From the NCBI GenBank assembly GCA_037128705.1, contig JBAXVX010000002.1, forward strand, positions 78,361 through 142,360: a stretch of DNA of 64,000 nucleotides. The letters are read 5' to 3'. This document shows positions 12,599 through 59,649 of this stretch, piece after piece. Position 1 is the stretch's first letter, and each line of letters starts with the position of its first letter. The stretch is from Bacteroidota bacterium. GTDB lineage: Bacteria > Bacteroidota > Bacteroidia > Bacteroidales > FEN-979. The position numbers were made by a program, and so were the translations under genes. A model generated the notes under the pieces. That model was not told the DNA's origin. It did no database searches and worked only from the letters and a program-made list of their open reading frames with translations.

Positions 12599-12738
12599 TA
12601 AAAGTGTGCAGGCTACAGGTGGCAAGAATCAGAAACCCCTCCACTGCATCATTTTCTCCACAATACCCGGAAAAATAATTTTTGATTTGGAAAGTAACAA
12701 TAATACATATATCTTTGACAATACAAAAACAGACAACC

Positions 12739-13407
12739 ATGAACAAAGTAATGTATCTTTTATTGGCATTCTCCCTGTTCACATCCTGCAAAAAGGATGA
12801 TACAACGGACGAGAACAGTTCTACATCCATTGGTGGTGATACAAATATTGAGATCAACCAGGTTGGAAACACATTTACCCCTGCTGCAGTTTCGGTGGGA
12901 GGCAGCTATCTTGACATCCCGGCTTCGATCGAAACCATTAAAACCGAAAACGGGATCAATACCATTAAAATGGTCGTCGACCTCACTAAAGCACCTGAAC
13001 TGGCAGCCTTGAATGCCATGATCCCTGCACAGTATAAAGATAACCAGGGCCGGGTAAATTCAGAAGTCAGGGTAAAAATGACATCCGAAGGCATATTGGA
13101 TTATACGAACAAGGACGGGGCTCCTTTTGTTGCGGTAAAATATGGCTCCAGCGTTGGCGATCAATACCAGCTCACCAAGTCGGATGGCAAAACAATTACC
13201 CGGAAAGTAGTTCAAAAATCAACCACCGACGACTTCTCCTGGGGTTTTTTAATGATCAAGACCATCTCAGTGGAACAAGATTCACGGATGCCGGGTATCA
13301 GCAAAATCGTCTACCGGTTCAACCACAAGTTCGGCCTTGTGGCTTTTGAACTTCATGGCGAGGATCGGTCGGTATTAGAGGGCCTGGTATATCCAAAATA
13401 TCCCTGA
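12739..13407 (+). CDS. hypothetical lipoprotein
   Basis: The internal ATG at 12739 gives MNKVMYLLLAFSLFTSCKKDD, a lipoprotein signal. The longer ORF from 12682 adds a non-signal extension. Confidence 0.55.
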   Translation: MNKVMYLLLAFSLFTSCKKDDTTDENSSTSIGGDTNIEINQVGNTFTPAAVSVGGSYLDIPASIETIKTENGINTIKMVVDLTKAPELAALNAMIPAQYKDNQGRVNSEVRVKMTSEGILDYTNKDGAPFVAVKYGSSVGDQYQLTKSDGKTITRKVVQKSTTDDFSWGFLMIKTISVEQDSRMPGISKIVYRFNHKFGLVAFELHGEDRSVLEGLVYPKYP

Positions 13408-13429
13408 TCGTTGAATGTAGTTACCCCTG

Positions 13430-13894
13430 GTGATTTTGAAGAAACTTCTGCTGCCATCTTACTGCAAAATAATCGGTTATATTCTGACGATCACCGGCAT
13501 TTTTCTCAGCTTTGTCCGGTTTGGCCTCGGGATCAAACCCACCTTCCTTGAAGTAAAGGTTTTTGCCATTTATAGCTCAATTTTTCAAGCGAGGTACTTT
13601 TCCCTGGTATACAACAACATCAGTGAGGAAATTTGCGGAGTGCTTTTGCTTTCAGGACTCTTTCTGATGACCTTTTCGCGCGAACGACATGAACAGAATT
13701 CCCTGTGGCGCCTGCGTTATCGGTCGATGTTTCTTGCTGTTTTCATCAATACCCTGCTGCTGCTCTTTGCCATCCTGTTTTTTTTCGGATTGGGTTTTCT
13801 CGTTATGATGACCCTGCATTTATTCTCCCTGCTCCTGATCTACAATATCATCTTTCTCATCTCACGTATCCGCAGTAAAAGGTCAATCGCTTAA
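13430..13894 (+). CDS. hypothetical integral membrane protein
   Basis: Four to five hydrophobic helices, a GTG start and no recognisable motif. Confidence 0.45.
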   Translation: MILKKLLLPSYCKIIGYILTITGIFLSFVRFGLGIKPTFLEVKVFAIYSSIFQARYFSLVYNNISEEICGVLLLSGLFLMTFSRERHEQNSLWRLRYRSMFLAVFINTLLLLFAILFFFGLGFLVMMTLHLFSLLLIYNIIFLISRIRSKRSIA

Positions 13895-13896
13895 TA

Positions 13897-14670
13897 ATGA
13901 ATCTGATCCATGAAACCGTGAGTCAAACCGACTGGCTCTATACCCGAATTTATCAAAATAATCTTCTCTTTATTGATCTTTGGTCGTTTGTTCATTTCTG
14001 GAGCGGTTTTGGTCTCATCATCCTTGCCAGGGACTTTAAAATCAAGCACCCTGTGGCCCTCATGGTTATAATACTTATCCTCTATGAACTAGTGGAAATT
14101 TCATTTCTCTATTTTGCCATGTCTGTTTTCCGACCCGAAACCATCAAAGACCAGTTTACCGATATTTTCATTGGCATAGCGGGAGGGGTAAGTATCTGGT
14201 ACGCGCTGAAGTTTATCCGCAAAAATGATCTTTTGAACAGAAAGTTTACGCTGCAGGGAATTGCATTGTATGCTGCCATCACCATTGCCTTCATTTGGGT
14301 AGGGTTTTACCGGTATGAATACAACTGGGGATTCATGAACAGCAATGGCATCAACTACTGGGCTCTCTCATGGTGGACCCTTGCATGTTATGTGACCATC
14401 AACCTCTTTCTTCTTTTCAAAAACCGGGGAGCAGCAATTTCAGTCATCATAACCTATGCAATTTATTTCACCTCCTTATTGATTCTTGAATATTGCGGTT
14501 ACTACCTGGCCGGGATGCATGAGATCAGCAAGCCGGGGTCAGATGCACTGATTTTCGGTCTGATTCACGGCACCCGGGCCATGCATCTCTTTTATATCTC
14601 GGCTCCCGGAATTTCAATTCTTGCGTTTCTCCTGGCGAGATGGCTTATTGCCAGAGCCATCAGTGGTTAG
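13897..14670 (+). CDS. hypothetical integral membrane protein
   Basis: Polytopic and hydrophobic. It starts 2 nt after the previous gene. Confidence 0.5.
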   Translation: MNLIHETVSQTDWLYTRIYQNNLLFIDLWSFVHFWSGFGLIILARDFKIKHPVALMVIILILYELVEISFLYFAMSVFRPETIKDQFTDIFIGIAGGVSIWYALKFIRKNDLLNRKFTLQGIALYAAITIAFIWVGFYRYEYNWGFMNSNGINYWALSWWTLACYVTINLFLLFKNRGAAISVIITYAIYFTSLLILEYCGYYLAGMHEISKPGSDALIFGLIHGTRAMHLFYISAPGISILAFLLARWLIARAISG

Positions 14671-41885: not shown

Positions 41886-42455
41886 TTAAAATGAAAGATA
41901 TCTGTTGACTCTTTTTGCATATGCTCTGTATTCGTCACCATATTGGGAGGTGAGGAATTGTTCTTCTTTGATCATAATAAAATGATGGATGATCCACGCA
42001 CCAATAAATGCCAGGATATTGATATAATTTGGATTTAAAAGACAGGAGGAGAAGAGGATGAAAATAAATCCCAAATAAAATGGATGGCGGCTGATAGAAT
42101 AAATGCCCTTTGTCTGGAGTTTGTGATTTTCGGAAGAGGATAAACCAAAAACCAAATCCGTATTCAGTCTGAAGGTGGAAAGAAATAATATGACAGTTCC
42201 GGTAATTAAAAAGGCCAATGCGATAATATCAATTAGTTCAACAGGTATAAAAATTCTATAAACATCAATTTTTAGCCCTTTCAGGAGCAGAAATGTCAGG
42301 TTTACGACTACCAGCATTTTTGCAAGAAGAAAAAAGAACACAGGAATGGGGGGGCGACCGAAAATTTGTTGTTTTGTAACGATTGACCGGCCAACAACGA
42401 CTGTTATTAAAAGGATTAATAACAGGGAGGTAATTAAAACGATGGTTGAAATCAT
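41886..42455 (-). CDS. isoprenylcysteine carboxyl methyltransferase (ICMT/PEMT-like) family membrane protein
   Basis: GIYSISRHPFYLG together with a C-terminal EE...YG..Y motif (EEQFLTSQYGDEYRAY). Confidence 0.7.
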   Translation of the reverse strand: MISTIVLITSLLLILLITVVVGRSIVTKQQIFGRPPIPVFFFLLAKMLVVVNLTFLLLKGLKIDVYRIFIPVELIDIIALAFLITGTVILFLSTFRLNTDLVFGLSSSENHKLQTKGIYSISRHPFYLGFIFILFSSCLLNPNYINILAFIGAWIIHHFIMIKEEQFLTSQYGDEYRAYAKRVNRYLSF

Positions 42456-44043: not shown

Positions 44044-45414
44044 TCACCGCTTCAGCAATTCTGTAGCTGCATTCATAAAACAATACACCTCATACTCTTT
44101 GGGATCAATCCAGGGGTCCTTCCATGTACTCCACACAACCGTCACCATCCGCTCCTTCTGATTTATGTGAATGAACTGCCCGAACACCCCCTGGGCCGTA
44201 AATGTACCCTCCAGGTTTGGAAAGTAGGTGGAAGGAGCACTGATGGTATCCTCCCCCCACAACAGGGGTTCACTCAGGTAATCCCATGGCCCCCATGGCG
44301 TTTCAGGCAAGGCCCACCAGTTGTAGCCATAACCGAGGGGGTAGTAGTAACCTTCGGGAAGATACAGGGCTCCCCAATTACATTGTGGCGAATCGGCGGC
44401 CGGGTTCCCCGCCTCAGCTGTCCACCCTTCGGGAAGTAAGGACGTTCCGTTCACCACCCCGTCGTTCAGGATGAACATCCCGAACCGCCCGTAGTCACGC
44501 AGCGTCATGCTCACATTTCCGCAGCCAAACTCGGCGCCGTTGTCCGACTCGAGCAGCCAGTAAGCATCGGACTCCATTCCCATGTTGGCCCAGATCTTCC
44601 GCGACAGGTATGCTGAAAGGGATTCACCACCCAGGGCGGCTTTCAGAACCTCCCCCTCCAGGAAGGTCTCACCGGAATTGTACAGGAACCGGGTACCCGG
44701 TTCACCTGCCCGGGTGAGTTTCGACAATAACTCCATGGTTCCCCCTGCTTTACCATCCACCGCACACTGAAACATGACTCTGAAATCGGAGGAGGGATCG
44801 CGGTAATCTTCATTCCAGGAAGCCCCCGACGACATCTGGAGCAGTTGCCTCACAGTCACTCCATCGTAAGCCGTACCTGTCATCCGGGGGAGGTAAGTGG
44901 TAACCCGGTCGTTGATATTATTGATCTTTCCCTCCTTCAGGGCAATCCCGATCAGTGTGGCCGTAATTGATTTCGCCACCGAGTAGGAGGTCCACCTCGA
45001 AGCGGCATTGTTACCCTCTGCGTAGCGTTCAAGAACGATCTTCCCGTCCTTGATGATCAGTAACCCCGCCACCTGGTTCCTGACAATAAAATCGTCAATG
45101 TTGTAGGTTTTGGTTCCGTTCAGTGTGTATTCAACCGAAGTCAGGGGCCGGGTCGATTCGGGAAGCGGGTAGACGGTGTTTCCGCGTGGAATGGTCCTGG
45201 TAAAGGCGATCTTATCCATATTCCGGTAGGTTCCGGGCTGATATTCAGGTGTCAGCCACAGCAGGTCTTTGAACCTGCCAATTTTATCTTCGGAAGGTTC
45301 GGTCGGGGTGCACTCCTCCCTTTTACAGCCATTGTTAGAAAGGAGCAAAAACCAGGAGAGAATCCACACGTAAATCCAGTTTCTGTTTTTCCGGTTAGTT
45401 CCCTGAGCCTTCAT
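44044..45414 (-). CDS. beta-lactamase-fold serine hydrolase lipoprotein
   Basis: Lipobox SNNGC, the SxxK motif YSVAKSITA and the YxN-like YNSGE. Confidence 0.75.
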   Translation of the reverse strand: MKAQGTNRKNRNWIYVWILSWFLLLSNNGCKREECTPTEPSEDKIGRFKDLLWLTPEYQPGTYRNMDKIAFTRTIPRGNTVYPLPESTRPLTSVEYTLNGTKTYNIDDFIVRNQVAGLLIIKDGKIVLERYAEGNNAASRWTSYSVAKSITATLIGIALKEGKINNINDRVTTYLPRMTGTAYDGVTVRQLLQMSSGASWNEDYRDPSSDFRVMFQCAVDGKAGGTMELLSKLTRAGEPGTRFLYNSGETFLEGEVLKAALGGESLSAYLSRKIWANMGMESDAYWLLESDNGAEFGCGNVSMTLRDYGRFGMFILNDGVVNGTSLLPEGWTAEAGNPAADSPQCNWGALYLPEGYYYPLGYGYNWWALPETPWGPWDYLSEPLLWGEDTISAPSTYFPNLEGTFTAQGVFGQFIHINQKERMVTVVWSTWKDPWIDPKEYEVYCFMNAATELLKR

Positions 45415-48154: not shown

Positions 48155-49210
48155 ATGAAAACCTCATCGATCCTACTATTTGGTGTATACCTTCCCCTGC
48201 TGTTAGCATTGGCGGCAGGTTGTAAAAAGGACTCAGACAATCCACCCTCAACCGGGATGGCCCTGCTCGATGAAACCTTCGCGGCGGTGCAGCAGATAAA
48301 CAACATTAAAAGCCTGGTGGTAGTCCGCAACGATACCCTGATCAGGGAGGCCTATTTCGGATCGGGCGGGGCTGATGTGGCCCACGATGTACGGTCGGTC
48401 ACCAAGAGCATCACCGCCCTGCTCGTTGGAATTGCCATCGACCAGGGATTTATTTCTTCAGTGGATCAACAAATCGGGGGCTTTTTACGACCCCTCGTTG
48501 ATACCATCACCCCTGAAAAAGCGAAAATAACCATCCGTGATCTCCTGACCATGAGCAGCGGATTTGAATGGGATGAACTGACCTCCGTTTCCGGGTATAA
48601 TCTCTGGGCCGGTGCGGCCAACCAGGTGCAATATGCTTTGAACAAACCATTGATTGCGCAACCCGGACAAAGGTTTGCCTACAACTCAGGAGCATTCCAC
48701 CTGTTATCTGTAATATTATCAAGAGCCACAGGTAAGACCACCCTTGATTTTGCCAAACAATATCTGTTCGAACACCTGGAGATAACCACCAGTACCTGGG
48801 AAACGGATAACCAGGGCTACAACAACGGGTCGGCCGGGCTTGAATTGACCCCACACGACATGGTAAAGATCGGTCAGCTTATTTTACATCATGGAGAATT
48901 CCATGGAAAACAGGTTGTTACTTCAAAGTGGATCGATGACCTGGGCAGTTTTAAAATAACCACCAACACGGCGGTTCCCTACGGCACCGGCTACGGTTAT
49001 GGATGGTGGAATGGCCAGTCCCCTCAGGGCAGCTACACATTTGCCATGGGATGGGGAGGCCAGTTCATCATAACCGTTCCAACCCTGGACCTGGTGGTTG
49101 TTGCGACAAACACCTGGAGCGGTGTCCCCTCAGCCGAAGCCAACGATCAGTGGTACCGCACGGTCGACCTGATCATGACCGGTGTCCTTCCCGCAATTGC
49201 GATGTGGTGA
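48155..49210 (+). CDS. beta-lactamase-fold serine hydrolase lipoprotein
   Basis: Lipobox LAAGC, the SxxK motif RSVTKSITA and the YxN-like YNSGA. Convergent with lanM, 44 nt apart. Confidence 0.75.
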   Translation: MKTSSILLFGVYLPLLLALAAGCKKDSDNPPSTGMALLDETFAAVQQINNIKSLVVVRNDTLIREAYFGSGGADVAHDVRSVTKSITALLVGIAIDQGFISSVDQQIGGFLRPLVDTITPEKAKITIRDLLTMSSGFEWDELTSVSGYNLWAGAANQVQYALNKPLIAQPGQRFAYNSGAFHLLSVILSRATGKTTLDFAKQYLFEHLEITTSTWETDNQGYNNGSAGLELTPHDMVKIGQLILHHGEFHGKQVVTSKWIDDLGSFKITTNTAVPYGTGYGYGWWNGQSPQGSYTFAMGWGGQFIITVPTLDLVVVATNTWSGVPSAEANDQWYRTVDLIMTGVLPAIAMW

Positions 49211-49254
49211 CTGGTGTTTCAGGAAAATTTACCAAACTGATCCCTATCAGCAGT

Positions 49255-52200
49255 TCATTCAAAAATAAGGACAGAGGGGAATCTATCGGGGTAGGCCTGC
49301 CTGAGCAAGGCATAACCGATGCCCGAAATTCCCTGGAAGAAGCCAGGATTGATCATTCCTTCATCCGAACCGAATGACAGGTCGTAATGGCCGTTTTTTT
49401 CGGCGAAGTGAAGAACCTGGTTCGTTTTTTTACCTGCCTCCGTCATTAAAGCGCGATCCCCGGTCCTGGCGGCAAAGTACAAAAGTATGTCGGCAAGCCC
49501 CATGTTCCCGCAGCAGAGGTGATCCCTGAATCCCATGTTCATGGAGGATGCCCGTGTCGCCCGGATGGCATTCCGGATATCTGTCTCGACGGTTTGATTG
49601 TTAAAAATATGCCGGGAGGCCAGCCGGGCAAGACCAATCCCCGGGGCCCCATGGCACCAGCTCAGCATATAGGAGGTGCCTGTATTTGGCTTGTCTTTAT
49701 ACTCCCTGAGATCCTGCCAGTTATTCTTCTCCTGCGTAAACAGTGTATTCTCATACCGGATGGCCCGTTCGGCCGTGTCGCGGGAAGCAGCTGTTCCTGT
49801 GAATTCGAACAACTTCAAAAGAGCATAGGCGATGCCGGCCTGGCCGTGCGAAAACCCCGACAGCATTTTATTTCCCGCGAATTTCCATCCGCAGCTTCCA
49901 TCATTATTCTCTGTAAGGTTTTTCAGCAGGTGTTCGCCGCAAAGATCAGCCTTTTCCAGGGCTTCCTGATAGCCTGTAAGTTTGTACAGCGCCAGCATCC
50001 CCAAAATGCATCCGGCACTGCCTGAAATGATATCGAAGGTCTTGTCATCCTGTATCACCCGCGGCCCGACCATGTGACAAACCGATTTTGCATCTTCCAG
50101 GAATGAGGGGTCACCGAGAAATCCGGAAATTTTAATCAGCGTATAAATGGCCGAGGATATCCCGGAGGCAATTCCGATAAATCCGCCCGATCCGGTCATT
50201 CCATATTGCTTCATTTGGGCAAATCCCTGGCGAAGGGATTGGATGGTTGATTCATTTAACCTTCGCAGCGCCGGATCATCCTTTACCGACAAAAGCGCGG
50301 ATAAGAAAAGGGTGACACCCGGAAGCCCGTCATAAAGGTTAAAGGACATAGGCTGTAAACGGAACCGGTCTGTGCCGGGTATGATCCCTGAGGTGATCCA
50401 GGTACAACTGCCGTCCTTTGAAAAGATGGCTTCAGATTGCAGTTTTGCCGCAATTTCTGTTGCAGCCTTCATCAGCGTTTCCGCTGGTGCCGGTTGGATC
50501 GCCCGTGCTGTGATAACCTGTTTTTCTTCCCCTGTTTTGACCTGGTTGTGTTCTAAATCCCTGAAAAGCAGCGCAGCCCGGATGAATTTTACCTGTGTTT
50601 TAAGATCCTCTTCATTCATTTCCGAAACCGAATTTACAACCTGGTCATAGGCTGCTTTGATCATATAGTCAGGACAAACAATTCCATACGGATCCTTGAG
50701 ATCGGTCCTGCCTGATTCAGTCCAGAAAATAGGAAAATCCGTGTCTTCCATCTGCCTCATTTCCGATTTGTTCATGGACCAGAAACTGCCTGATTCCGGA
50801 TTGTGCAGGAATGCACGGCAAAGCATCTCTTTCTGCATGCTGCGCTCCAAACCTTTACGCATATAGTTCGGATTCATCAGGTTTTTGATGATCAACCCAT
50901 ATATCCGGGTCGCCCTGAAAATAAACCGCAGATCTTTTCCTTCAAACAGGCGGACGGGAATTTGAGTGCGATGTTTGACCAGCAACCGGTAAAGGGTGGT
51001 AAACCCCGAAACGATTTCTTCTGTATAGTTGACAGGGGGCTGTTTCCGACCTTGATAAACCGGGATATTCTGGTTTTCCTGGAAGACGATGGGCACGTAG
51101 GATATCCTCATGCTGTCGCTGTTGATATATTGCCACTCCATCCGCTGGTATGGAGATTCATCGTAATCATACCCTCCAATGCCACTGACATCGTAAACGA
51201 ATCCATCTTTACCGAGTATCCATGATGGTAAAAGGCCGGTGCGAAAAACAGAAAATTCAAATTGTGAATTGGCAAGAACATAGGCACTGTCTTCAAATTG
51301 GGTATCTATGTTTTTGCCTTCATGATGCATCACCGATTCAAGATCGATGAGCATAGGTTGTGACCCGGCAGCGATGAGGTTCTCCATGTGGCAATCATTC
51401 CCCCTCAGCGTGTAAATAATTCCGATGAGTGCACCAATACGCCTGTAATAATCCGTAATCTCCTGCCCTGATGTACAGTCTGAGGCCTCAATAAAGCCAA
51501 CCCATCCATATTCACCTTTACTGACAAGGTTGAGGGGTTTCATAGGAGGCGTCAGCCCTTTTTCGTTCAGCCAGTTTATGAAGGCTGACCATGCCACTTC
51601 CAGTGCGAGATTTTTTGGCTTGTAAATCAGTTTCAGCCCCGATTCAAATTTGATGGATATCACTCCCTGGCCATGGTTGTGCGAATCGGAGATCCCCCCC
51701 TGGTAACTTGTTAATTTTCCGGGTGCGGTATCCCTGACGAAATGGGTTGAAAGTTCAGCCATGTCATCCGACAGGTGGTGGATGAATGAAGCAGTGGTGC
51801 GTATCCAGTTGTCGATCAGTATGGTTATGATTTTGGCCAGGGCACTGTATTCAGCGAAGAAATCCTGCCAGCCGTTTTCAACAATCCGGCCAACAAATTG
51901 TTCATAAAAGTGAGTGCCCGGAACCTCAGCCGGAAGCGTCTCAGCCAGGATCCTGAACACCGAAGACTGACGGGTGCTTTTGAAGACCTCGAACTCCAGT
52001 TGAAAAGTCTTTGAAGTATAAAATTGCAACCTGCGCATCAGCAACAGGTTCATCATTTTTTCTGCCTCCCCCGAAAACAAATCCGTTTTCTTTTTCCCGA
52101 CATTCAAATCAAGTTTTTCAACAGCATAAAGAACCAGCGGGGTTAAAAGATGCTGGTAGGGAATTTTATCCGCATATTCCTCCCCGATGCACTGTTTCAT

Positions 52201-52539
52201 TTTCAAAGATAGATCCGTCGGATCATATGATTGAAGGAATCCGATCAGTTCCCTGAAGGTATTTATCCATGCCGGAAGCTGATCCTTATCCCTGAAAGAA
52301 ACCGTTCCGGCCAATTTCCCCAGGTCATCATCGGTAAGCCCGTCCATTTTCAGCCGGTTTTCGAACATCACGGGATCATCCGGGGCAACAATTTTTCTCC
52401 ATTCGGTTCGGAATTTTTCCACTTCCCCCTCTTTTGCCGGATGAAAAACAAACCGGTGCGGTTCATCGATTTTCTCTCGTAAGGTAATGGCCCTGGCGGC
52501 CACGTTGTGCCAGTAGGAATCAGGTAGTTCGGGCCTCAT
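49255..52539 (-). CDS. lanM: class II lanthipeptide synthetase LanM (dehydratase plus LanC-like cyclase), CCG zinc-site type
   Basis: Dehydratase-domain motifs DSHNHGQGVISIKFESGLKLIYKPKNL and NDCHMENLIAAGSQPMLIDLES. Cyclase motifs SGFSHGQAGIAYAL, SWCHGAPGIG and HLCCGNMG. Start taken at MRPELP (ATG 52539-52537), which forms an ATGA overlap with the upstream stop. The longest ORF extends to 52605. Confidence 0.9.
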   Translation of the reverse strand: MRPELPDSYWHNVAARAITLREKIDEPHRFVFHPAKEGEVEKFRTEWRKIVAPDDPVMFENRLKMDGLTDDDLGKLAGTVSFRDKDQLPAWINTFRELIGFLQSYDPTDLSLKMKQCIGEEYADKIPYQHLLTPLVLYAVEKLDLNVGKKKTDLFSGEAEKMMNLLLMRRLQFYTSKTFQLEFEVFKSTRQSSVFRILAETLPAEVPGTHFYEQFVGRIVENGWQDFFAEYSALAKIITILIDNWIRTTASFIHHLSDDMAELSTHFVRDTAPGKLTSYQGGISDSHNHGQGVISIKFESGLKLIYKPKNLALEVAWSAFINWLNEKGLTPPMKPLNLVSKGEYGWVGFIEASDCTSGQEITDYYRRIGALIGIIYTLRGNDCHMENLIAAGSQPMLIDLESVMHHEGKNIDTQFEDSAYVLANSQFEFSVFRTGLLPSWILGKDGFVYDVSGIGGYDYDESPYQRMEWQYINSDSMRISYVPIVFQENQNIPVYQGRKQPPVNYTEEIVSGFTTLYRLLVKHRTQIPVRLFEGKDLRFIFRATRIYGLIIKNLMNPNYMRKGLERSMQKEMLCRAFLHNPESGSFWSMNKSEMRQMEDTDFPIFWTESGRTDLKDPYGIVCPDYMIKAAYDQVVNSVSEMNEEDLKTQVKFIRAALLFRDLEHNQVKTGEEKQVITARAIQPAPAETLMKAATEIAAKLQSEAIFSKDGSCTWITSGIIPGTDRFRLQPMSFNLYDGLPGVTLFLSALLSVKDDPALRRLNESTIQSLRQGFAQMKQYGMTGSGGFIGIASGISSAIYTLIKISGFLGDPSFLEDAKSVCHMVGPRVIQDDKTFDIISGSAGCILGMLALYKLTGYQEALEKADLCGEHLLKNLTENNDGSCGWKFAGNKMLSGFSHGQAGIAYALLKLFEFTGTAASRDTAERAIRYENTLFTQEKNNWQDLREYKDKPNTGTSYMLSWCHGAPGIGLARLASRHIFNNQTVETDIRNAIRATRASSMNMGFRDHLCCGNMGLADILLYFAARTGDRALMTEAGKKTNQVLHFAEKNGHYDLSFGSDEGMINPGFFQGISGIGYALLRQAYPDRFPSVLIFE

Positions 52540-53600
52540 TTTGCAGATTCTTGACCGGTTGTTACTTTCTGTGGATTGATCATGGTTCCGAAATATCCCT
52601 TGCACTCCGGGGGCATTCCTGGCTTATATACCAGTTTAAGGTGATTGATACCGTTCATATAGTGAACCGGAACGAGGTACGAAACGGTTTTTTTACTGGT
52701 ATAGCTTGTCAGTCCCTCCCTCTTTTCCCGGAGCAGGAGATTTTCAGCCTCGAGAAAATCGAAAATTTCGTTCCATCTCGGGTCCCACCTGGGCTGGCTC
52801 AAATCCTTAAGATACATCTCTATTCCGAAAACGGGAAGCACTGTTTTCCCAATGTGAAGATTACAGGAAAAGTGATCAAATTTTAAAGCATAGTTTGTAA
52901 CCATTTTTTGGATCACATCCATCTCCCCGGGCCACCGGATATCCTTTAAATATTCAATGAATGAATCTTCCCTGAGCCTCGAAAGAATGAGTCGGACGGC
53001 TTCTGTTTTCCTGGGGATCATAAACCCTAAAATAGAAATAACCGCATGCTGCGGGAGTGCCTCAAAGCATCTTTTCAGGTTTCTGCCCAAACCGGCTGGA
53101 AATTTTATCCCAAAAAGGATCCGGTATATTTCATCCAGTACTTCAAGCACAAAAAGCCATTGGGATCTCCTGGGGGCTTCCTTTTCAATAATTTTGAAAA
53201 ATATGTTCGGGATTGGATTGAAGGCTGATTCCATGCAGTCGAATTCGAGCCAGAATGATTCAATCCGTTCATGGAGAAAAGAAGAAGCATCTGTCCAGGC
53301 TGAGAAAAGTTCTGAGATTTTTTGCCAGAAAGGGATGCTTAACAATGACGGGGATAACATGGATACCTTGCTTTTACCGGCAATTATGCCGGCTCCTTCA
53401 CCCTCTTTTCTGATCTGCAGGAAAAAATCGCAGGTGGCTTCCCGGTTTCCTAAACGCGTTTCGAAACCGAAGTCTGTTGCAGCGTCGAACGGGAACATGG
53501 AACAAAGTTCTTCGACCGCATGAAGATGCCCGGGAGCAAGCAAAGCGGGCGAAATCCCGGGTGTAATGGCTGAAAAGTGATCACGGAAAGAGTATTTCAT
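52536..53600 (-). CDS. uncharacterised 354-aa protein translationally coupled to lanM
   Basis: Its TGA stop (52538-52536) overlaps the lanM ATG. No signal peptide, TM helix or classic cofactor motif. Shows repeated short strand-like motifs (CDFFLQIR, SFWLEFD, VRLILSRL, FSCNLHIG, FGIEMYLK, LKLVYKPG). Confidence 0.7.
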   Translation of the reverse strand: MKYSFRDHFSAITPGISPALLAPGHLHAVEELCSMFPFDAATDFGFETRLGNREATCDFFLQIRKEGEGAGIIAGKSKVSMLSPSLLSIPFWQKISELFSAWTDASSFLHERIESFWLEFDCMESAFNPIPNIFFKIIEKEAPRRSQWLFVLEVLDEIYRILFGIKFPAGLGRNLKRCFEALPQHAVISILGFMIPRKTEAVRLILSRLREDSFIEYLKDIRWPGEMDVIQKMVTNYALKFDHFSCNLHIGKTVLPVFGIEMYLKDLSQPRWDPRWNEIFDFLEAENLLLREKREGLTSYTSKKTVSYLVPVHYMNGINHLKLVYKPGMPPECKGYFGTMINPQKVTTGQESAK

Positions 53601-53650
53601 CTGAATGATATTGTTTTACGTTATTGGCAAAGAATCCCGGGTTTATAATT

Positions 53651-53658
53651 CAAATGTA
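53651..53658 (-). promoter_or_regulatory. candidate Bacteroidota -7 promoter element (TAnnTTTG) for the 354-aa gene/lanM operon
   Basis: The minus strand reads TACATTTG, about 50 nt upstream of the ATG at 53600. I saw no clear -33 TTTG. Confidence 0.3.
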
Positions 53659-53670
53659 ACAACTAATTCC

Positions 53671-53678
53671 TAGTTTTG
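53671..53678 (+). promoter_or_regulatory. candidate Bacteroidota -7 promoter element (TAnnTTTG) for the export operon
   Basis: The plus strand reads TAGTTTTG, about 25 nt upstream of the ATG at 53703. Confidence 0.3.
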
Positions 53679-53702
53679 TATGAATTCTAATGCAACAAGG
53701 AA

Positions 53703-54509
53703 ATGCTTAGCCGCCAGATTTTCAGAAAAACCTCTCTTGAAAAAATGACCAACATGGATGACCTGGATGAATTGCTCCAGGTTAATTCAATAAAGACATG
53801 GTTATTGTTTTCAGGTATTTGTGCAGTTCTGGCAGGGATGCTTGCCTGGGGATTCCTTGGTACGATCTCTCATAATGTCCAGGGATTCGGCATCATAAAA
53901 ACGCAGGCCCCCTGGAGGGAAGTTCTGGCAGACCGTTCGGGGCAGATTGACTCCATCTTTTGCAATACAGGCGACAGGATTGCGACGGGACAGAAGATGG
54001 CCACGATCTTCGAACTGGAAAATAAGACCTATGTGCCGATCAATTCCCTGGTCCCCGGCCAGGTGGTGGCCATCAATGTAAGGGAGGGAACCTATGTAAC
54101 CAAGGGAACTTCTTTGTTTGAATTAATGCTGGCTGACAAGCAAACGAAGAAACAACCCGAGGTGATTTTCTTCATCGTTGAAAGGGAGGTATCAAAGCTG
54201 AAAAAGGGAATGTTCTGCAACCTCCAGGTTGACAAGCAGGGAGTCCCGCCTGAACTATTAAATGCAGTCATCACTTTCATCTCCGATTATTCGGTTTCGA
54301 AAAATACCATCTCAAAGTATTTCCCGGGTGGGGATATGTCGGATGATATTGGCGACAAGGATTTCTATGAAGTAAGGGCATTTCTGAAGGTTGATCCTGA
54401 TGGGTCGCCGAACCTGGCAAACTTTGACCTCAGTAAATTAAACTGGCTGACCTGCAGGGTAAACATCACCGTTGAACGAAAAAGTCCCATCGCCTTCCTT
54501 TTCAAATAA
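53703..54509 (+). CDS. NHLP/NHLM-type bacteriocin secretion adaptor (HlyD-like), short form without alpha-hairpin
   Basis: The N-terminus FRKTSLEKMTNMDDLDELLQVNSIKTWLLFSGICAVLAGMLAWGF matches the characteristic start of this family. The two half-lipoyl motifs are separated by only about 10 residues. Confidence 0.7.
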   Translation: MLSRQIFRKTSLEKMTNMDDLDELLQVNSIKTWLLFSGICAVLAGMLAWGFLGTISHNVQGFGIIKTQAPWREVLADRSGQIDSIFCNTGDRIATGQKMATIFELENKTYVPINSLVPGQVVAINVREGTYVTKGTSLFELMLADKQTKKQPEVIFFIVEREVSKLKKGMFCNLQVDKQGVPPELLNAVITFISDYSVSKNTISKYFPGGDMSDDIGDKDFYEVRAFLKVDPDGSPNLANFDLSKLNWLTCRVNITVERKSPIAFLFK

Positions 54510-54533: not shown

Positions 54534-56732
54534 ATGAATCTGAATCCCATCAACCTCCTCCGCACTGTGTATCACCGTCTGACCGGAACCAGGCGGGTTA
54601 AAACCCCGACGGTTTTGCAGATGGAAGCGCTTGAATGCGGAGCTGCATCGCTGGGCATTGTGCTGGCCTATTATGGTAAATATGTACCACTGGAAAAACT
54701 GCGGGTCGATTGCGGCGTATCACGCAACGGGAGCACTGCCGGCAACCTGACTAAAGCTGCACGGAGCTATGGCCTCGAGGTGAAGGCCTATAAAAAGGAA
54801 CCTGAGAAACTCAGGGAGTTGCGCGCCCCGATGATCGTTTTCTGGAACTTTTACCATTTCCTGGTTGTTGAAGGCTTCGGGAAAAATAAAGTGTACCTCA
54901 ATGATCCCGCCTCTGGTCCGCGCGTGGTGGATGACAAAACCTTTGATCACTCTTTCACCGGGGTGGTGATGACCTTCGAACCCGGACCCGGTTTTCAGCC
55001 CGGTGGTGTAAAACCCAGGTTCCTTCCCACCCTGAAGAAATGGCTGAAAGGTTATTACTACAGCCTGCTTTTCCTTTTCCTGGTCGGACTGGCCCTGATC
55101 ATTCCCGGGTTGGCGATCCCGATCTTTTCCAAAATCTTTGTAGACCAGATCCTGATCAAAAACTCAGAATCGTGGATCATCCCCCTTCTGGTTGGACTTA
55201 CGCTTACAACCCTGCTGCGTGCAATGTTATCGTGGATACAGCAGCACAGCCTGATCCGGTTTGAGATTAGCATTTCGCTGAAGAACGCTTCAAAGTTCTT
55301 CTGGCATCTGCTTCATCTGCCCATGTCATTTCATACCCAGCGTCCGGCGGGCGATATCACCATGCGTATTGGGATCAATGACCAGGTTGCGGGGTTGCTT
55401 TCAGGCCAGCTTGGAAACACCCTGCTCAATCTCTTCATGATCGTATTTTATGCGATGCTGATGTTTTATTACAGCATTCCGCTTGCACTGATTGCCATCG
55501 CCATATCCTTGCTGAATATCCTGGCCCTGCGGTTCATTTCGCGTAAACGGGTCGATTCAAATCAAAAGCTGCTACAGGATAACGGTAAAATGTACGGCCT
55601 TTCATCGGCCGGCCTGCAGATGATAGAATCAATCAAGGCCAATGCCTCTGAATCAGATTTTTTTGCCAAATGGGCCGGGTACCAGACCAAACTGCTGAAC
55701 ATGCAGCAAAAACTGGGCATACTCACCCAAACCCTGCAGGTAATCCCCGTATTTCTTACCATGATGAGTACCCTGATCATCCTGGTCATGGGATCAGGAT
55801 TTATCATCGACGGGGTGATGACCGTTGGAACCTTTGTTGCATTCCAGTCGGTAATGGCAAGTTTCAACCAGCCGATTGTCTCCCTGGTAAACCTTGGAAG
55901 CTCACTGCAGGATGTCCAGGGCGGGCTGAAAAGGATCGATGATGTATACAATTATCCTGCTGCCGGTACGAATATATCGGCTGGAGAAACAGCAGCCGTC
56001 AATAAAATGGTGAAGCTCCAGGGATATATTGAGCTGAAAAATATCACCTTTGGATACAGCCCGCTGGAATCGCCCCTGATCACCAATTTTTCGCTCAGCC
56101 TGAAACCGGGGTCCCGGGTAGCCATAGTGGGCAGGACCGGCTGTGGAAAATCAACCCTGGCCAACCTGGTCAGTGGTCTGTACGATCCGTGGGAAGGTGA
56201 GATCCTGCTGGATGGCAAACGCAGGGCTGATATCCCCCAGGCTACCCTGAGTAATTCCATATCCATGGTCGATCAGAACCTTTTCCTGTTCGAAGGCAGC
56301 GTAAAAGATAATATCTCCTTCTGGGATCAGACCATCGCAAACAAGGATATCATCCAGGCAGCCAAAGAGGCCTGCATCCATGATGACATCGCCGCGCGAC
56401 CGGCTGCCTATGAGAGTCATGTTGAAGAGAATGGAAAAAATTTCAGCGGGGGCCAGCGGCAGCGCATTGAAATAGCAAGAGCGCTGGCAGCCAAGCCATC
56501 CATTCTTATTCTCGATGAAGCTACCAGCGCCCTGGATGCACAAACAGAGCAGGCGATCGATATCAACATCCGGAAAAAAGGCTGTACCTGCCTCATCATT
56601 GCGCACCGGTTAAGTACCATCCGCGATTGCGATGAAATCATCGTGATGAGTCTTGGACGGATCGTTCAGCGCGGGACCCATGAGGAATTAATGAGAAAAA
56701 TAGGATTATACCAGGACCTGATAAAAGAATGA
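54534..56732 (+). CDS. bacteriocin/lanthipeptide export ABC transporter with an N-terminal C39 peptidase domain (LanT/NHLM ABC1-like)
   Basis: C39 motifs LQMEALECGAASL (catalytic Cys), NFYHFLVVEG (His) and LNDPA. Six-TM domain. Walker A GRTGCGKST, signature FSGGQRQR and Walker B ILILDEATSALD. Confidence 0.9.
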   Translation: MNLNPINLLRTVYHRLTGTRRVKTPTVLQMEALECGAASLGIVLAYYGKYVPLEKLRVDCGVSRNGSTAGNLTKAARSYGLEVKAYKKEPEKLRELRAPMIVFWNFYHFLVVEGFGKNKVYLNDPASGPRVVDDKTFDHSFTGVVMTFEPGPGFQPGGVKPRFLPTLKKWLKGYYYSLLFLFLVGLALIIPGLAIPIFSKIFVDQILIKNSESWIIPLLVGLTLTTLLRAMLSWIQQHSLIRFEISISLKNASKFFWHLLHLPMSFHTQRPAGDITMRIGINDQVAGLLSGQLGNTLLNLFMIVFYAMLMFYYSIPLALIAIAISLLNILALRFISRKRVDSNQKLLQDNGKMYGLSSAGLQMIESIKANASESDFFAKWAGYQTKLLNMQQKLGILTQTLQVIPVFLTMMSTLIILVMGSGFIIDGVMTVGTFVAFQSVMASFNQPIVSLVNLGSSLQDVQGGLKRIDDVYNYPAAGTNISAGETAAVNKMVKLQGYIELKNITFGYSPLESPLITNFSLSLKPGSRVAIVGRTGCGKSTLANLVSGLYDPWEGEILLDGKRRADIPQATLSNSISMVDQNLFLFEGSVKDNISFWDQTIANKDIIQAAKEACIHDDIAARPAAYESHVEENGKNFSGGQRQRIEIARALAAKPSILILDEATSALDAQTEQAIDINIRKKGCTCLIIAHRLSTIRDCDEIIVMSLGRIVQRGTHEELMRKIGLYQDLIKE

Positions 56733-56739
56733 TCAAACC

Positions 56740-59649
56740 ATGAAAAACAACCCCTTTGCGGAAGCCATGCTTACACTGGGTACCCCCGGAAAAACCGGGG
56801 CGAACCAGTCTTTTACCATGGCCCATCTTCAAAGTGTGTGGTATGTAACCAAAGGGCATATCGACCTCTTTTCCGTGCGGCTTGAAAATGATCAGCCGTC
56901 GGGGTCAAGGTTCTTTCTGTTTACAGCCAGCCAGGGGGAACTCCTTTTTGGAATGCGGAGTGATCAGTTTGGAAATGAGCAGGCCCTGCTTGCGGTTCCA
57001 TCAACCGATGCTGAGATCATCGTGACCGGGATTGACCAGGTTAAGGAGCTGATAAAGCGACCGGGGTTTTTTGATACCGGGGTGTCGCTGATTGAAACCT
57101 GGATTGGTCATTTGTTATCCGGAATTTCCAAGGATCTGAATTCACGCACCGACGTGATGATTGATTCTGACACAGTGTTCACGCTGGAAGACAACATGAA
57201 GTTCCGCTCAAAAAAAGGGCTATTCTGGGTCGAATTTCTGTCGGGGAATGCATTGTTCCTTGGAATGAGGGAGATTCGGGACAACAGCGAACGGAAAAAA
57301 TTCCCGGTCTCCCAGGATTCATGGCTTCAAACAACAGAATCATCCGATATCAGATCCTGCAAGACCGGTGAACTTTTACTCCAGGATGATTTCTGGGATC
57401 ACATGGAAAATTTCTACCAGGTGATCTTCTACTGTGACTTTTTGAATACAAACCTGATGACGGTTGATGAATTCAACCGCCTCAGCGAAAAAGCGGTTCA
57501 CGATTCAAATATCCTTTCCGCTTCCCTTTTTAAAATAGCCTCTGTTATCAATGATAACATCCGGAAAACTTACATTGAGGCCGGCGTGAATCCATTGGTT
57601 TCAGCATGTAAGGCGGTGGCCGGTTATGCCGGCATTTCCGTTACCTTGCCGCCCAGGCCTAAAAGCGATGATGCGCCTCCTTTAACCCTGAACGACATCG
57701 CCCATGCCTCACGGTTCAGGACAAGGAAGGTGAGACTTGCCGGCGATTGGTGGAACAAGGACAACGGCCCGCTGCTTGCCTTCACCAGGGACAGCGACTT
57801 TCCCATTGCCCTGATACCCAAGTCGCCGGGAAAATATGAGTATATCAGTCCGGCCGAGAATTTAAAACAATTGCTAACGGCTGAATCCGCCTCATTGCTG
57901 GCTGCAGAAGCCCGCCAGTTTTACCGGCCCTTTCCCGACCGTCCCATCAAGGTTCTGGATCTGATCAGGTTCAGCTTTAAAAATTCCATCCGGGATATTA
58001 TGCTGATGATTCTGGTAGGAGTGGCAGGAGGCATACTGACCATATTGGTTCCCATGCTAACCGGGACCATCTTTGACAGTGTCATTCCCAAATCAGATTA
58101 CACCCAGCTTTACGTTTACGCCCTTGCGCTCTTTTTCAGTTTTGTTGCCATAGCGATTTTTCAGCTGGTACGCAGTTTTTCCATGATCAGAATTGAAACG
58201 AAACTCGATTTCCTGCTTCAGTCGGCCATCTGGGACCGGCTGCTCAACCTGCCTGTCCCGTTTTTCAGAAAATACCAGGCCGGGGAACTGGCAGCCAAGG
58301 CAAACAGCATCATGATGCTCCGCAAGATCCTTTCAGATACGGTGATCTACAGTGTGCTGGGCTCTGTTTTCCTGGTATTCAACTTCATTCTCATGTTTTT
58401 TTATGATGCCTCCCTGTCGCTTTATATCTTAGGCTTCTCCCTGTTATCCTATATTTTCATCTTCTTTGTCGGGAAAAAGATCCAGAAACGGCAGTATCTT
58501 ATCATTCAGCTGAACAACAAGATTTTCGGGATGCTGCTGCAGCTGTTGTCCAGTATCTCCAAAATCAAGATCGCGGGTGCTGAAATTCATGCATTTTCTC
58601 AATGGGCTGAAAAATATGCCACAAACAAGCGTCAAACCTATGAAGTAAGAAAACTGAATCAGTGGATTTCGTTGCTCACTACTTTGTGGCCGCTCCTGAT
58701 TACGATCTTTGTTTTTGCCACCATCGCCTGGCAGGTCCCGCATACCCTGTCAACTGGTGAGTTCCTGGCATTCTATACCGCCATGACTACAACCATCGCT
58801 TCATTTCTTCAGCTGGGGATGGCCGGCATTGCACTTTTCATGGCGATGCCCTTACTGGAAAACATTCGTCCGATACTGGAAACACTCCCGGAAAATGTTT
58901 CCTTAAAAGCCGAAATAAAGGAACTTTCGGGCGAAATCGAGGTGAACAATGTAAGCTTCAGGTACCAGCCCGATGGTCCGCTTGTGCTGGATAACGTTTC
59001 GTTGCAGGTACAACCCGGTGAATTTGTAGCCATCGTGGGGACATCCGGTTCCGGAAAATCAACCCTGCTTCGTTTACTGCTTGGTTTTGAAACCCCCGAA
59101 AGCGGTTCTGTCTATTACGACCGGCAGGATCTCTCCACATTCGACCCTGCTTCGGTGAGACGACAGGCGGGAACTGTTCTTCAGCAAACACAGCTGGCTC
59201 CCGGTAACATCCTGACCAACATTACGGGAGTGACCGATGCTACCTTCGAGGATGCCTGGGAGGCTGCCAGAAGTGTGGGACTGGACGAAGACATCAAGCA
59301 GATGCCCATGGGAATGTATACCGTGATCACCGGTGGCCTCAGCACGATCTCAGGTGGCCAGAAACAACGCATCATGATCGCCCGGGCTATTGTCAACAGG
59401 CCCCGGATCCTCTTTTTCGATGAAGCAACAAGCTCCCTGGATAATAAAACTCAGTTTACAGTAAGCGCCAGTCTCGAAAAACTACAGGCATCCCGTGTTG
59501 TGATTGCCCATCGTCTTACCACCGTACAGCACGCCGACAGAATCTACGTTATGGATCACGGTAAGATCGTTGAATCCGGATCATTCGCCGAATTGATTGA
59601 AACAGGAGGAAAATTCAATGAGCTGGTGAAGCGCCAGATGGTTGAATAA
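56740..59649 (+). CDS. second bacteriocin-system ABC transporter (permease/ATPase) with a ~400-aa N-terminal extension including a cNMP-binding-like fold (NHLM ABC2-like)
   Basis: 969 aa. The N-terminus (HIDLFSV...GSRFFLFTASQGELLFG) resembles a cyclic-nucleotide-binding beta-roll. TM domain, Walker A GTSGSGKST, signature ISGGQKQR and Walker B ILFFDEATSSLD. Starts 7 nt after the previous gene. Confidence 0.85.
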   Translation: MKNNPFAEAMLTLGTPGKTGANQSFTMAHLQSVWYVTKGHIDLFSVRLENDQPSGSRFFLFTASQGELLFGMRSDQFGNEQALLAVPSTDAEIIVTGIDQVKELIKRPGFFDTGVSLIETWIGHLLSGISKDLNSRTDVMIDSDTVFTLEDNMKFRSKKGLFWVEFLSGNALFLGMREIRDNSERKKFPVSQDSWLQTTESSDIRSCKTGELLLQDDFWDHMENFYQVIFYCDFLNTNLMTVDEFNRLSEKAVHDSNILSASLFKIASVINDNIRKTYIEAGVNPLVSACKAVAGYAGISVTLPPRPKSDDAPPLTLNDIAHASRFRTRKVRLAGDWWNKDNGPLLAFTRDSDFPIALIPKSPGKYEYISPAENLKQLLTAESASLLAAEARQFYRPFPDRPIKVLDLIRFSFKNSIRDIMLMILVGVAGGILTILVPMLTGTIFDSVIPKSDYTQLYVYALALFFSFVAIAIFQLVRSFSMIRIETKLDFLLQSAIWDRLLNLPVPFFRKYQAGELAAKANSIMMLRKILSDTVIYSVLGSVFLVFNFILMFFYDASLSLYILGFSLLSYIFIFFVGKKIQKRQYLIIQLNNKIFGMLLQLLSSISKIKIAGAEIHAFSQWAEKYATNKRQTYEVRKLNQWISLLTTLWPLLITIFVFATIAWQVPHTLSTGEFLAFYTAMTTTIASFLQLGMAGIALFMAMPLLENIRPILETLPENVSLKAEIKELSGEIEVNNVSFRYQPDGPLVLDNVSLQVQPGEFVAIVGTSGSGKSTLLRLLLGFETPESGSVYYDRQDLSTFDPASVRRQAGTVLQQTQLAPGNILTNITGVTDATFEDAWEAARSVGLDEDIKQMPMGMYTVITGGLSTISGGQKQRIMIARAIVNRPRILFFDEATSSLDNKTQFTVSASLEKLQASRVVIAHRLTTVQHADRIYVMDHGKIVESGSFAELIETGGKFNELVKRQMVE

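Follow-up and report, generated by a model that had tools for sequence, protein, structure and literature searches.

The stretch of DNA analysed here (64,000 nucleotides of Bacteroidota bacterium assembly GCA_037128705.1, contig JBAXVX010000002.1, positions 78,361 to 142,360; hereafter the window, taken at its full length and with its own numbering) carries a lanthipeptide locus in which an uncharacterised 354-amino-acid (aa) protein, hereafter the target, is encoded directly ahead of the class II synthetase gene lanM. The target is predicted to be a prenyltransferase (PT) of the ABBA fold, and nearly all of its relatives lie among genes for peptides that are made on ribosomes and modified after translation (RiPPs). 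The locus consists of two divergent operons, with the following features:

52536–53600, minus strand: predicted stand-alone ABBA-fold peptide PT gene, 354 aa, first gene of its operon (open reading frame (ORF), AlphaFold2 model, Foldseek, homology and ratio of non-synonymous to synonymous substitution rates (dN/dS))
49255–52539, minus strand: LanM, class II lanthipeptide synthetase, 1094 aa from the ATG at 52539 (TIGR03897, DUF4135 plus LANC_like)
53601–53702, no strand: divergent intergenic region of 102 bp, in which the promoters for the two operons presumably lie (TAnnTTTG on each strand)
53703–54509, plus strand: short HlyD-like membrane-fusion protein of the NHLP system, 268 aa (TIGR03794 E 3.2e-25, under the curated cutoff; Biotin_lipoyl_2 plus HlyD_D23)
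54534–56732, plus strand: C39-peptidase ABC transporter, NHLP export subunit 1 (TIGR03796 1056 bits, cutoff 853; Peptidase_C39, ABC_membrane and ABC_tran)
56740–59649, plus strand: NHLP export ABC transporter subunit 2, 969 aa (TIGR03797 851 bits, cutoff 709)

The predicted PT gene and its coupling to lanM

The target ORF (52536–53600, minus strand) starts with ATG and encodes 354 aa. At its 3′ end the minus strand reads GCAAAATGAGGCCC, in which the stop codon TGA (52538–52536) overlaps the ATG of lanM (52539–52537) as ATGA. The gene heads its operon, with the divergent HlyD-like gene 102 bp upstream. A first-pass annotation of this DNA had described a 354-aa ORF coupled to lanM through ATGA and placed first in the operon, and all of this reads as described. 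For lanM itself an upstream GTG (52605) is offered by the ORF lister; the ATG is favoured because gene calls of the LanM orthologs give 1094 aa and an identical 4-base overlap. The identity of LanM is established by TIGR03897 (E 5.7e-256) together with the DUF4135 and LANC_like domains, and its Zn-ligand motifs WCHGAPG and CCGN, as read from the translation, are intact.

A search of 5.8 billion proteins returned 74 homolog clusters for the target, nearly all of 340–356 aa and none with a Pfam domain, the named ones being ‘hypothetical protein' from Bacteroidota metagenome-assembled genomes (MAGs). Against the 87%-identical ortholog in a related locus (L004), where lanM overlaps the PT gene in the same way, dN/dS of the PT gene is 0.24, compared with 0.06–0.18 for the four neighbouring genes; the PT gene is therefore under purifying selection, slightly more relaxed than that on its neighbours. 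Because of these homologs and this dN/dS value, the ORF is more than a chance reading frame.

The absence of a transmembrane helix, claimed at first sight, agrees with a maximal 19-residue Kyte-Doolittle hydrophobicity of 1.3. That neither a nucleotide-binding nor a radical-SAM motif is present stands as far as CxxxCxxC and a Rossmann motif are concerned, both being absent, but a Walker-A-like string, AGIIAGKS, does occur at residues 70–77. It was rejected as a chance match, its Lys-Ser not being kept in the superfamily consensus LAGxxx.

Predicted fold and relationship to known prenyltransferases

Sequence libraries were silent on the target. No Pfam or NCBIfam match was obtained at E<=1, phmmer against the PDB was also empty, PDB searches with two target-derived profiles gave no match, and among 102 diverse superfamily members 0 of 102 matched Pfam. 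The sole NCBIfam match, to a haloacid dehalogenase model, scored 13.9 bits against a cutoff of 291 and was rejected as noise. Structure prediction was informative. An AlphaFold2 model built from a 43-sequence alignment (mean predicted local distance difference test score 92.5, predicted template-modelling score 0.90) consists of five repeats of a helix-helix-strand-strand (alpha-alpha-beta-beta) unit, and six out of six strand-like motifs picked out by eye in the first-pass annotation fall on its predicted beta strands. In a Foldseek search of the PDB, each of the 50 best matches is an ABBA aromatic PT, with probability 1.00 for the top 32 and E values down to 2.9e-6 (6zs0, a bacterial dimethylallyltryptophan synthase (DMATS)). 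These matches include bacterial DMATS, IptA, PriB, CymD, MpnD, NphB, EpzP, CloQ, AmbP3 and FamD1, as well as the cyanobactin enzymes PatF, PagF, PirF, LimF and KgpF; Foldseek against viral structures gave nothing relevant. The model thus supports an ABBA (PT-barrel) fold for the target. The target contains no [DN]DxxD motif and no predicted transmembrane helix, and is in this unlike PTs of the trans-isoprenyl diphosphate synthase and UbiA types.

An ABBA-barrel prenyltransferase had been put forward at first only weakly, and the idea has gained considerably from the five-fold repeat, from the exclusively ABBA matches in the best 50 and from the PT homologs described below; of the checks that had been proposed for it, Foldseek gave this answer and the hidden Markov model (HMM) libraries, noise apart, none. 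The likeness then seen to the cyanobactin LynF/TruF/PagF family or to NphB holds for the fold, but not for membership of the cyanobactin family at the level of sequence, where no Pfam or NCBIfam match exists. Cyanobactin PTs (LynF/TruF/PatF/PagF/PirF/LimF/KgpF) share with the target the ABBA fold (Foldseek E 3.5e-3 to 3e-2) and have ribosomal peptides as substrates, yet no sequence relation to the target is detectable and in structural rank they stand under the bacterial DMATS and NphB-type enzymes. They are leader-independent and act on N–C macrocycles released by PatA/PatG-type proteases (PMC12715784); no protease of that type was found in the cluster or the scanned flanks of the window. The best structural matches are the bacterial indole and aromatic PTs (5-DMATS SCO7467, IptA, PriB, CymD, MpnD, NphB, EpzP and CloQ; E 2.9e-6 to 1e-3, TM-score up to 0.57). 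Several of these use an indole acceptor, but their substrates are free tryptophan or small aromatics, they have no RiPP association, and their identity to the target in structural alignments is 8–12%.

Closer relatives were found by sequence. A profile search of 1.84 billion 50%-identity representatives yielded 3,720 relatives at E<=1e-3, of which 1,157 reach E<=1e-30, and within this superfamily the PT-like domain is fused to squalene-hopene-cyclase-like domains, 2-oxoglutarate (2OG)-Fe(II) oxygenases and sulfotransferases. Nostoc WP_322705818.1 has an N-terminal domain to which the full length of the target aligns at 30% identity (E 2e-47). The Nostoc cyclase fusions are 707 aa long and bear the NCBI name ‘prenyltransferase/squalene oxidase repeat-containing protein'; in Nostoc sp. 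DedQUE04 the gene for WP_322705818.1 has two NHLP precursors and a PhyH hydroxylase on one side and LanM on the other, with a HlyD/C39-ABC pair alongside. According to the account of Hubrich et al. 2024 given in PMC13290415, NctPC joins an ABBA PT to a class II terpene cyclase resembling MstE, and the fusion protein first geranylgeranylates a Trp and afterwards cyclises the chain so attached; the pathway product is named steromaze in PMC13647313. By its architecture and synteny, as opposed to comparison with the published NctPC sequence, WP_322705818.1 would be an NctPC-type protein. As far as that account describes it, the NctPC P domain resembles the target in being an ABBA PT with little likeness to cyanobactin PTs, whose gene directly precedes that for LanM and is accompanied by a HlyD/C39-ABC exporter; NHLP precursors lie next to it, as they do in the homolog loci of the target. 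It differs in its fused class II terpene cyclase, whereas the target is a stand-alone protein of 354 aa with no cyclase nearby, so that a cyclised C20 group is not expected; moreover, NctPC is cyanobacterial and its system has a double NHLP leader, as against the single leader in the homolog loci of the target.

The second characterised relative is MppC of Moorena producens, which geranylates Trp82 at C5 of the LanM-cyclised, leader-bearing peptide MppE, needs the whole Nif11 leader and rejected free L-Trp (PMC12715784). A search with the published MppE peptide (PMC12715784) led to an 87%-identical precursor in Moorena producens. Its locus (L024) also encodes LanM and a Trp halogenase, and the gene directly downstream of this MppE-like Nif11 precursor specifies a protein of 375 aa without Pfam match. 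This protein aligns with the target at 26% identity (BLASTP E 2e-36). The target-family profile gives it 210 bits, or E 3.4e-57 when scaled to the 1.8-billion library, and the superfamily profile gives it 400 bits. It was taken as the MppC ortholog because its Y330 and F334 match the published W336 and F340 of MppC at a constant offset of 6; the assignment, based on synteny and this offset and not on the published MppC sequence, is probable. Two other routes to MppC were negative: a Nostoc P-domain search gave 16 matches, 0 of them from Moorena, and a screen of the collected proteins for W336/F340 gave none. Like the target, MppC is a stand-alone soluble ABBA PT (~350–375 aa) of a class II lanthipeptide cluster; the mpp cluster differs in its halogenase and other tailoring genes, which are absent from the window. 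According to the supplement of PMC12715784, MppC-like proteins diverge from cyanobactin PTs, occur in Cyanobacteriota, Myxococcota and Pseudomonadota and often lie near LanM, Nif11 or NHLP genes, a spread that agrees with the taxa and neighbours found here. Judged by sequence, then, the target is a relative of MppC and of the NctPC P domain and belongs to an unannotated Bacteroidota branch rather than to a new enzyme class. The alternative that the first-pass annotation had kept open, a new LanM-associated family, falls away with the characterisation of lanthipeptide and proteusin ABBA PTs in 2024–2025 (PMC12715784; Hubrich et al. 2024 via PMC13290415).

Across the 102 superfamily members, E47, E119, D121, K322, K334 and Y336 are invariant and D58, W92, W102, W117, F120, R197, R203, E261, K293 and H320 nearly so. 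All of these are retained in the target and in the Moorena protein, and all but K293 (Thr) in the Nostoc fusion. Most of the conserved residues are on barrel strands, in an alternating (i/i+2) register (E47/R49, W117/E119/D121, H320/K322 and K334/Y336). Going by this register and not by coordinates, they would face the barrel lumen and serve diphosphate binding and an acidic catalytic or metal-binding function.

Several further members of the superfamily have unusual architectures. In the fusion members P0095/P0104/P0110 (Leptolyngbya and others) the PT-like domain is followed by a C-terminal 2OG-Fe(II) oxygenase (586–622 aa, annotated only as ‘2OG-Fe(II) oxygenase'), and in P0204 an N-terminal sulfotransferase is fused to it (640 aa). 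P0101, P0127 and P0200 are among several members of 690–730 aa whose second half has no Pfam match. Near the probable MppC ortholog in L024, a 716-aa protein (12231–14381, minus strand) combines an amine-oxidase/NAD-binding domain with a weak C-terminal squalene-hopene-cyclase match; it may correspond to the ‘terpene synthase' partner that has been named in connection with the mpp cluster.

Homolog loci, precursor cores and the surroundings in the window

Twenty-four loci were examined. NHLP precursors were present in every homolog locus with enough flanking DNA, a set that spans MAGs of Bacteroidales, Bacteroidia, Lentimicrobiaceae and Prolixibacteraceae and one Chromatiales MAG, from 1 to >10 per locus and often immediately adjoining the PT gene, and most of the precursor-bearing loci also contained LanM and the HlyD/ABC/ABC trio. 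The link to RiPP genes, lanM included, that had been supposed from the window is thus borne out by RiPP neighbours in nearly every locus examined. A stand-alone cyclase-like protein of 339 aa was found in four distinct loci (L001/L014, which are one locus; L010, with two copies; L016; and L017). With the Nostoc fusion's cyclase domain it shares 37% identity (E 9e-66), so that the Bacteroidota have the P–C pair in split form. The clade nearest to the window (L004, L006 and L007; 70–87% identity) has the PT–LanM pair and the exporters without the cyclase, and tblastn likewise found no cyclase gene in the 64-kb window. In L007, three NHLP precursors lie 1.7 kb past LanM, behind a transposase.

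Two distant members depart from this arrangement. In a Longimicrobium MAG (L023, 1735–10880) a PT homolog is accompanied by a 57-aa ORF, an NHLP-like gene, an OEP outer-membrane factor, HlyD and two ABC transporters but by no LanM, which suggests that prenylated non-lanthipeptide NHLP products are made there. A Polyangium relative (L022) has no RiPP context.

Other loci drew attention for their content. Contig 456 of the Bacteroidia MAG KTt_bin-2223 (L010, 1–12707) holds at least 11 NHLP precursors with highly varied Trp/Cys cores, two cyclases, one PT and one LanM, and on a further contig (L012) this MAG encodes one more PT and five additional precursors; together these look like a combinatorial, prochlorosin-like library of terpene-modified lanthipeptides. 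In the locus of P0016 (ERZ1426829 contig, 11744–14236), three NHLP precursors and the PT are followed by a LanM-like protein of only 830 aa, with DUF4135 alone and no LANC_like domain on record. Incomplete PT copies occur in two loci, as a 36-residue N-terminal fragment between precursor genes and upstream of an intact copy (L011, 9019–9126) and as an internally deleted PT adjoining the 3′ end of LanM and a precursor (L019, 696–1044).

The cores of 32 precursors from the homolog loci, defined as the part after the Gly-Gly site, were compared with their leaders. Trp makes up 5.6% of the cores and 0.1% of the leaders; it occurs in 25 of the 32 cores, and Cys in 28, while most of the seven cores without Trp contain Tyr or Phe. 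In 14 of 34 cases the core Trp is followed by Ser or Thr (W-[S/T]; 5.7 expected, binomial p 7e-4), and all 14 have a Cys no more than eight residues further on. HSWTGC is present in the Nostoc cores, and MppE has its ring-forming Ser83 right after the prenylated Trp82 (PMC12715784). These patterns point to a Trp beside a lanthionine ring as the likely acceptor, as far as precursor sequences can tell. In two loci (L016/L017, 9677–9958), an NHLP precursor upstream of the PT gene at 10001 has the core TGWGGPGQGS, with one Trp and no Cys, and a cyclase nearby; lacking Cys, this core cannot form a lanthionine, which suggests a substrate of the PT and cyclase only.

Around the cluster itself, both ABC genes exceed the NCBI equivalog cutoffs for NHLP-bacteriocin export. 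The HlyD-like protein has 268 aa against the 421 positions of TIGR03794. Its length is the same in every Bacteroidota homolog locus, a sign that the adaptor may be a shortened form particular to this lineage. Within the 102-bp spacer, TAnnTTTG occurs at 53651–53658 (minus strand) and 53671–53678 (plus strand). This sequence fits the Bacteroidota −7 promoter element, but with 44 occurrences against 42.5 expected it shows no excess over chance in the window, and it is only suggestive of promoters for both divergent operons in the spacer. Scans of 49000–54000 for sigma-70 promoters and terminators stayed at or under chance, with no sigma-70-type site in the spacer.

A scan of the ORFs at 31.9–49.2 kb and 59.7–63.3 kb, but not of those in 1–31 kb, turned up no polyprenyl diphosphate synthase, and the window contains no tRNA or Rfam family. 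Unrelated genes flank the cluster; they encode members of the beta-lactamase family, one lipocalin-like and one HD protein, a PMT_2 glycosyltransferase and proteins sorted by the type IX secretion system. Two beta-lactamase-family (serine hydrolase) genes on the downstream side of lanM (44044–45414, minus strand, and 48155–49210, plus strand) also flank the L004 ortholog and are therefore syntenic neighbours rather than evident cluster members. A PEMT/ICMT/DUF1295-like membrane methyltransferase gene (41886–42455, minus strand), ~7 kb from lanM, was considered for a link to prenylation and rejected, as it has no counterpart in the 24 related loci.

Proposed function and its alternatives

Taken together, the target is quite probably a leader-dependent PT of the RiPP type that alkylates, most likely at Trp, LanM-cyclised NHLP peptides encoded outside the window. 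NHLP-led precursors would be dehydrated and cyclised by the co-translated LanM. The PT would then bind the leader-bearing cyclised peptide and transfer a prenyl cation from a diphosphate donor to a core Trp next to a ring-forming Ser or Thr, the diphosphate being held by the conserved Lys, Arg, His and Tyr residues and Mg2+ probably by the acidic cluster. For MppC too, cyclisation by LanM comes first and the modified Trp adjoins a ring-forming Ser (PMC12715784), and the same order is proposed for the target. By analogy the chain may have a length of C10–C20, and the prenyl group probably stays linear because no terpene cyclase is present. The HlyD/C39-ABC/ABC trio would cut the leader after Gly-Gly and export the lipidated lanthipeptide.

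Several observations weigh against this proposal. The Nostoc and Moorena proteins were identified with NctPC and MppC through architecture, synteny and the +6 offset instead of the published sequences. Likeness to any single solved structure is moderate (Foldseek TM-scores 0.4–0.57, root-mean-square deviation 6–8 Å), the known PT-family sequence models all fail to match the target, and the lumen orientation of the conserved residues derives from the strand register alone. No NHLP precursor was found in the window, where three NHLP leaders used in tblastn and an HMM built from 32 leaders, run with --max against all six-frame segments, returned noise, and where a screen of intergenic DNA for Cys/Trp-rich small ORFs gave nothing convincing; nor does the 87%-identical L004 have a precursor within 10 kb. 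The enrichment of Trp was computed without a control set of PT-free NHLP precursors, and the 32 cores are related to one another. Finally, the loop that carries the leader-binding W336/F340 in MppC (Y330/F334 in Moorena) is deleted in the target, as seen from a gap in the pairwise alignment, and leader recognition may therefore differ from that of MppC. MppC works with a Nif11 leader whereas the target family goes with NHLP leaders, and the MppC-type insertion of a Phe into the leader nucleus may be specific to Nif11 leaders.

An active ABBA enzyme might use another acceptor or another substrate (Tyr, Ser/Thr, His, Arg, a peptide terminus, a linear peptide, or a small aromatic metabolite with no tie to the lanthipeptide). 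The range of nucleophiles that ABBA PTs prenylate is wide (PMC12715784), the closest PDB matches act on free tryptophan and small molecules, seven of the 32 cores have no Trp and mostly offer Tyr or Phe instead, and distant members do without LanM (L023) or any RiPP context (L022). The only characterised relatives, however, act on Trp of leader-bearing peptides, and free L-Trp was rejected by MppC (PMC12715784). NHLP precursors adjoin the gene in every well-flanked homolog locus, often immediately, and in two MAGs the core directly upstream of the PT is the Cys-free, single-Trp TGWGGPGQGS; we regard this alternative as improbable. The target might also be a catalytically dead ABBA-fold partner that binds the leader or serves LanM as a scaffold, in the manner of PatF, the inactive PT homolog in patellamide biosynthesis. 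The structural matches include PatF, translational coupling suggests stoichiometric co-production with LanM, and neither precursor nor prenyl-donor gene was found in the scanned parts of the window. Yet the target keeps every residue that is invariant among the 102 superfamily members, residues also present in the Nostoc and Moorena proteins, each of which has an active published counterpart, and its gene is under purifying selection, which leaves a dead scaffold with very little likelihood.

The missing precursors could instead mean that the cluster is orphaned or decaying and that the PT–LanM pair has lost its product. The window and the 10 kb examined around L004 lack a precursor, a transposase splits LanM from the three precursors in L007, PT copies are broken in L011 and L019, and the PT gene evolves somewhat faster than its neighbours (0.24 vs 0.06–0.18). 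But all five genes are intact, as are the Zn-ligand motifs of LanM, and dN/dS is well under 1 in both precursor-less loci. Trans-encoded precursors are, besides, well known for NHLP/Nif11 LanM systems, the prochlorosins being an example. Decay is the least probable of the explanations considered, and the precursors for the PT–LanM pair of the window are presumably encoded elsewhere in the genome. A more far-reaching reading, which we hold to be unlikely though worth stating, is that the cyclase-less Bacteroidales clade (the window, L004, L006 and L007) forms a trans-acting, prochlorosin-style system, in which one PT–LanM pair would lipidate many dispersed NHLP precursors with a leader recognition unlike that of MppC (the Phe loop being missing) and possibly with another acceptor or donor. 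If true, uncultured freshwater anaerobes would possess prenylated lanthipeptides as a combinatorial library.

Interest in lipidated macrocyclic peptides stems from their antibiotic and membrane-active properties. PTs acting on leader-bearing lanthipeptides were described only in 2024–2025 and only from cyanobacteria; the homologs collected here form a stand-alone branch in uncultured Bacteroidota, tightly tied to LanM and NHLP precursors and unseen by Pfam, NCBIfam and genome annotation. For the target gene itself the outcome is confirmatory rather than surprising, and the main value lies in annotation and in genome mining for lipidated lanthipeptides: as the superfamily is large (3,720 representatives) and its members are fused to cyclases, 2OG oxygenases and sulfotransferases, a family model would improve the genome mining of RiPPs.

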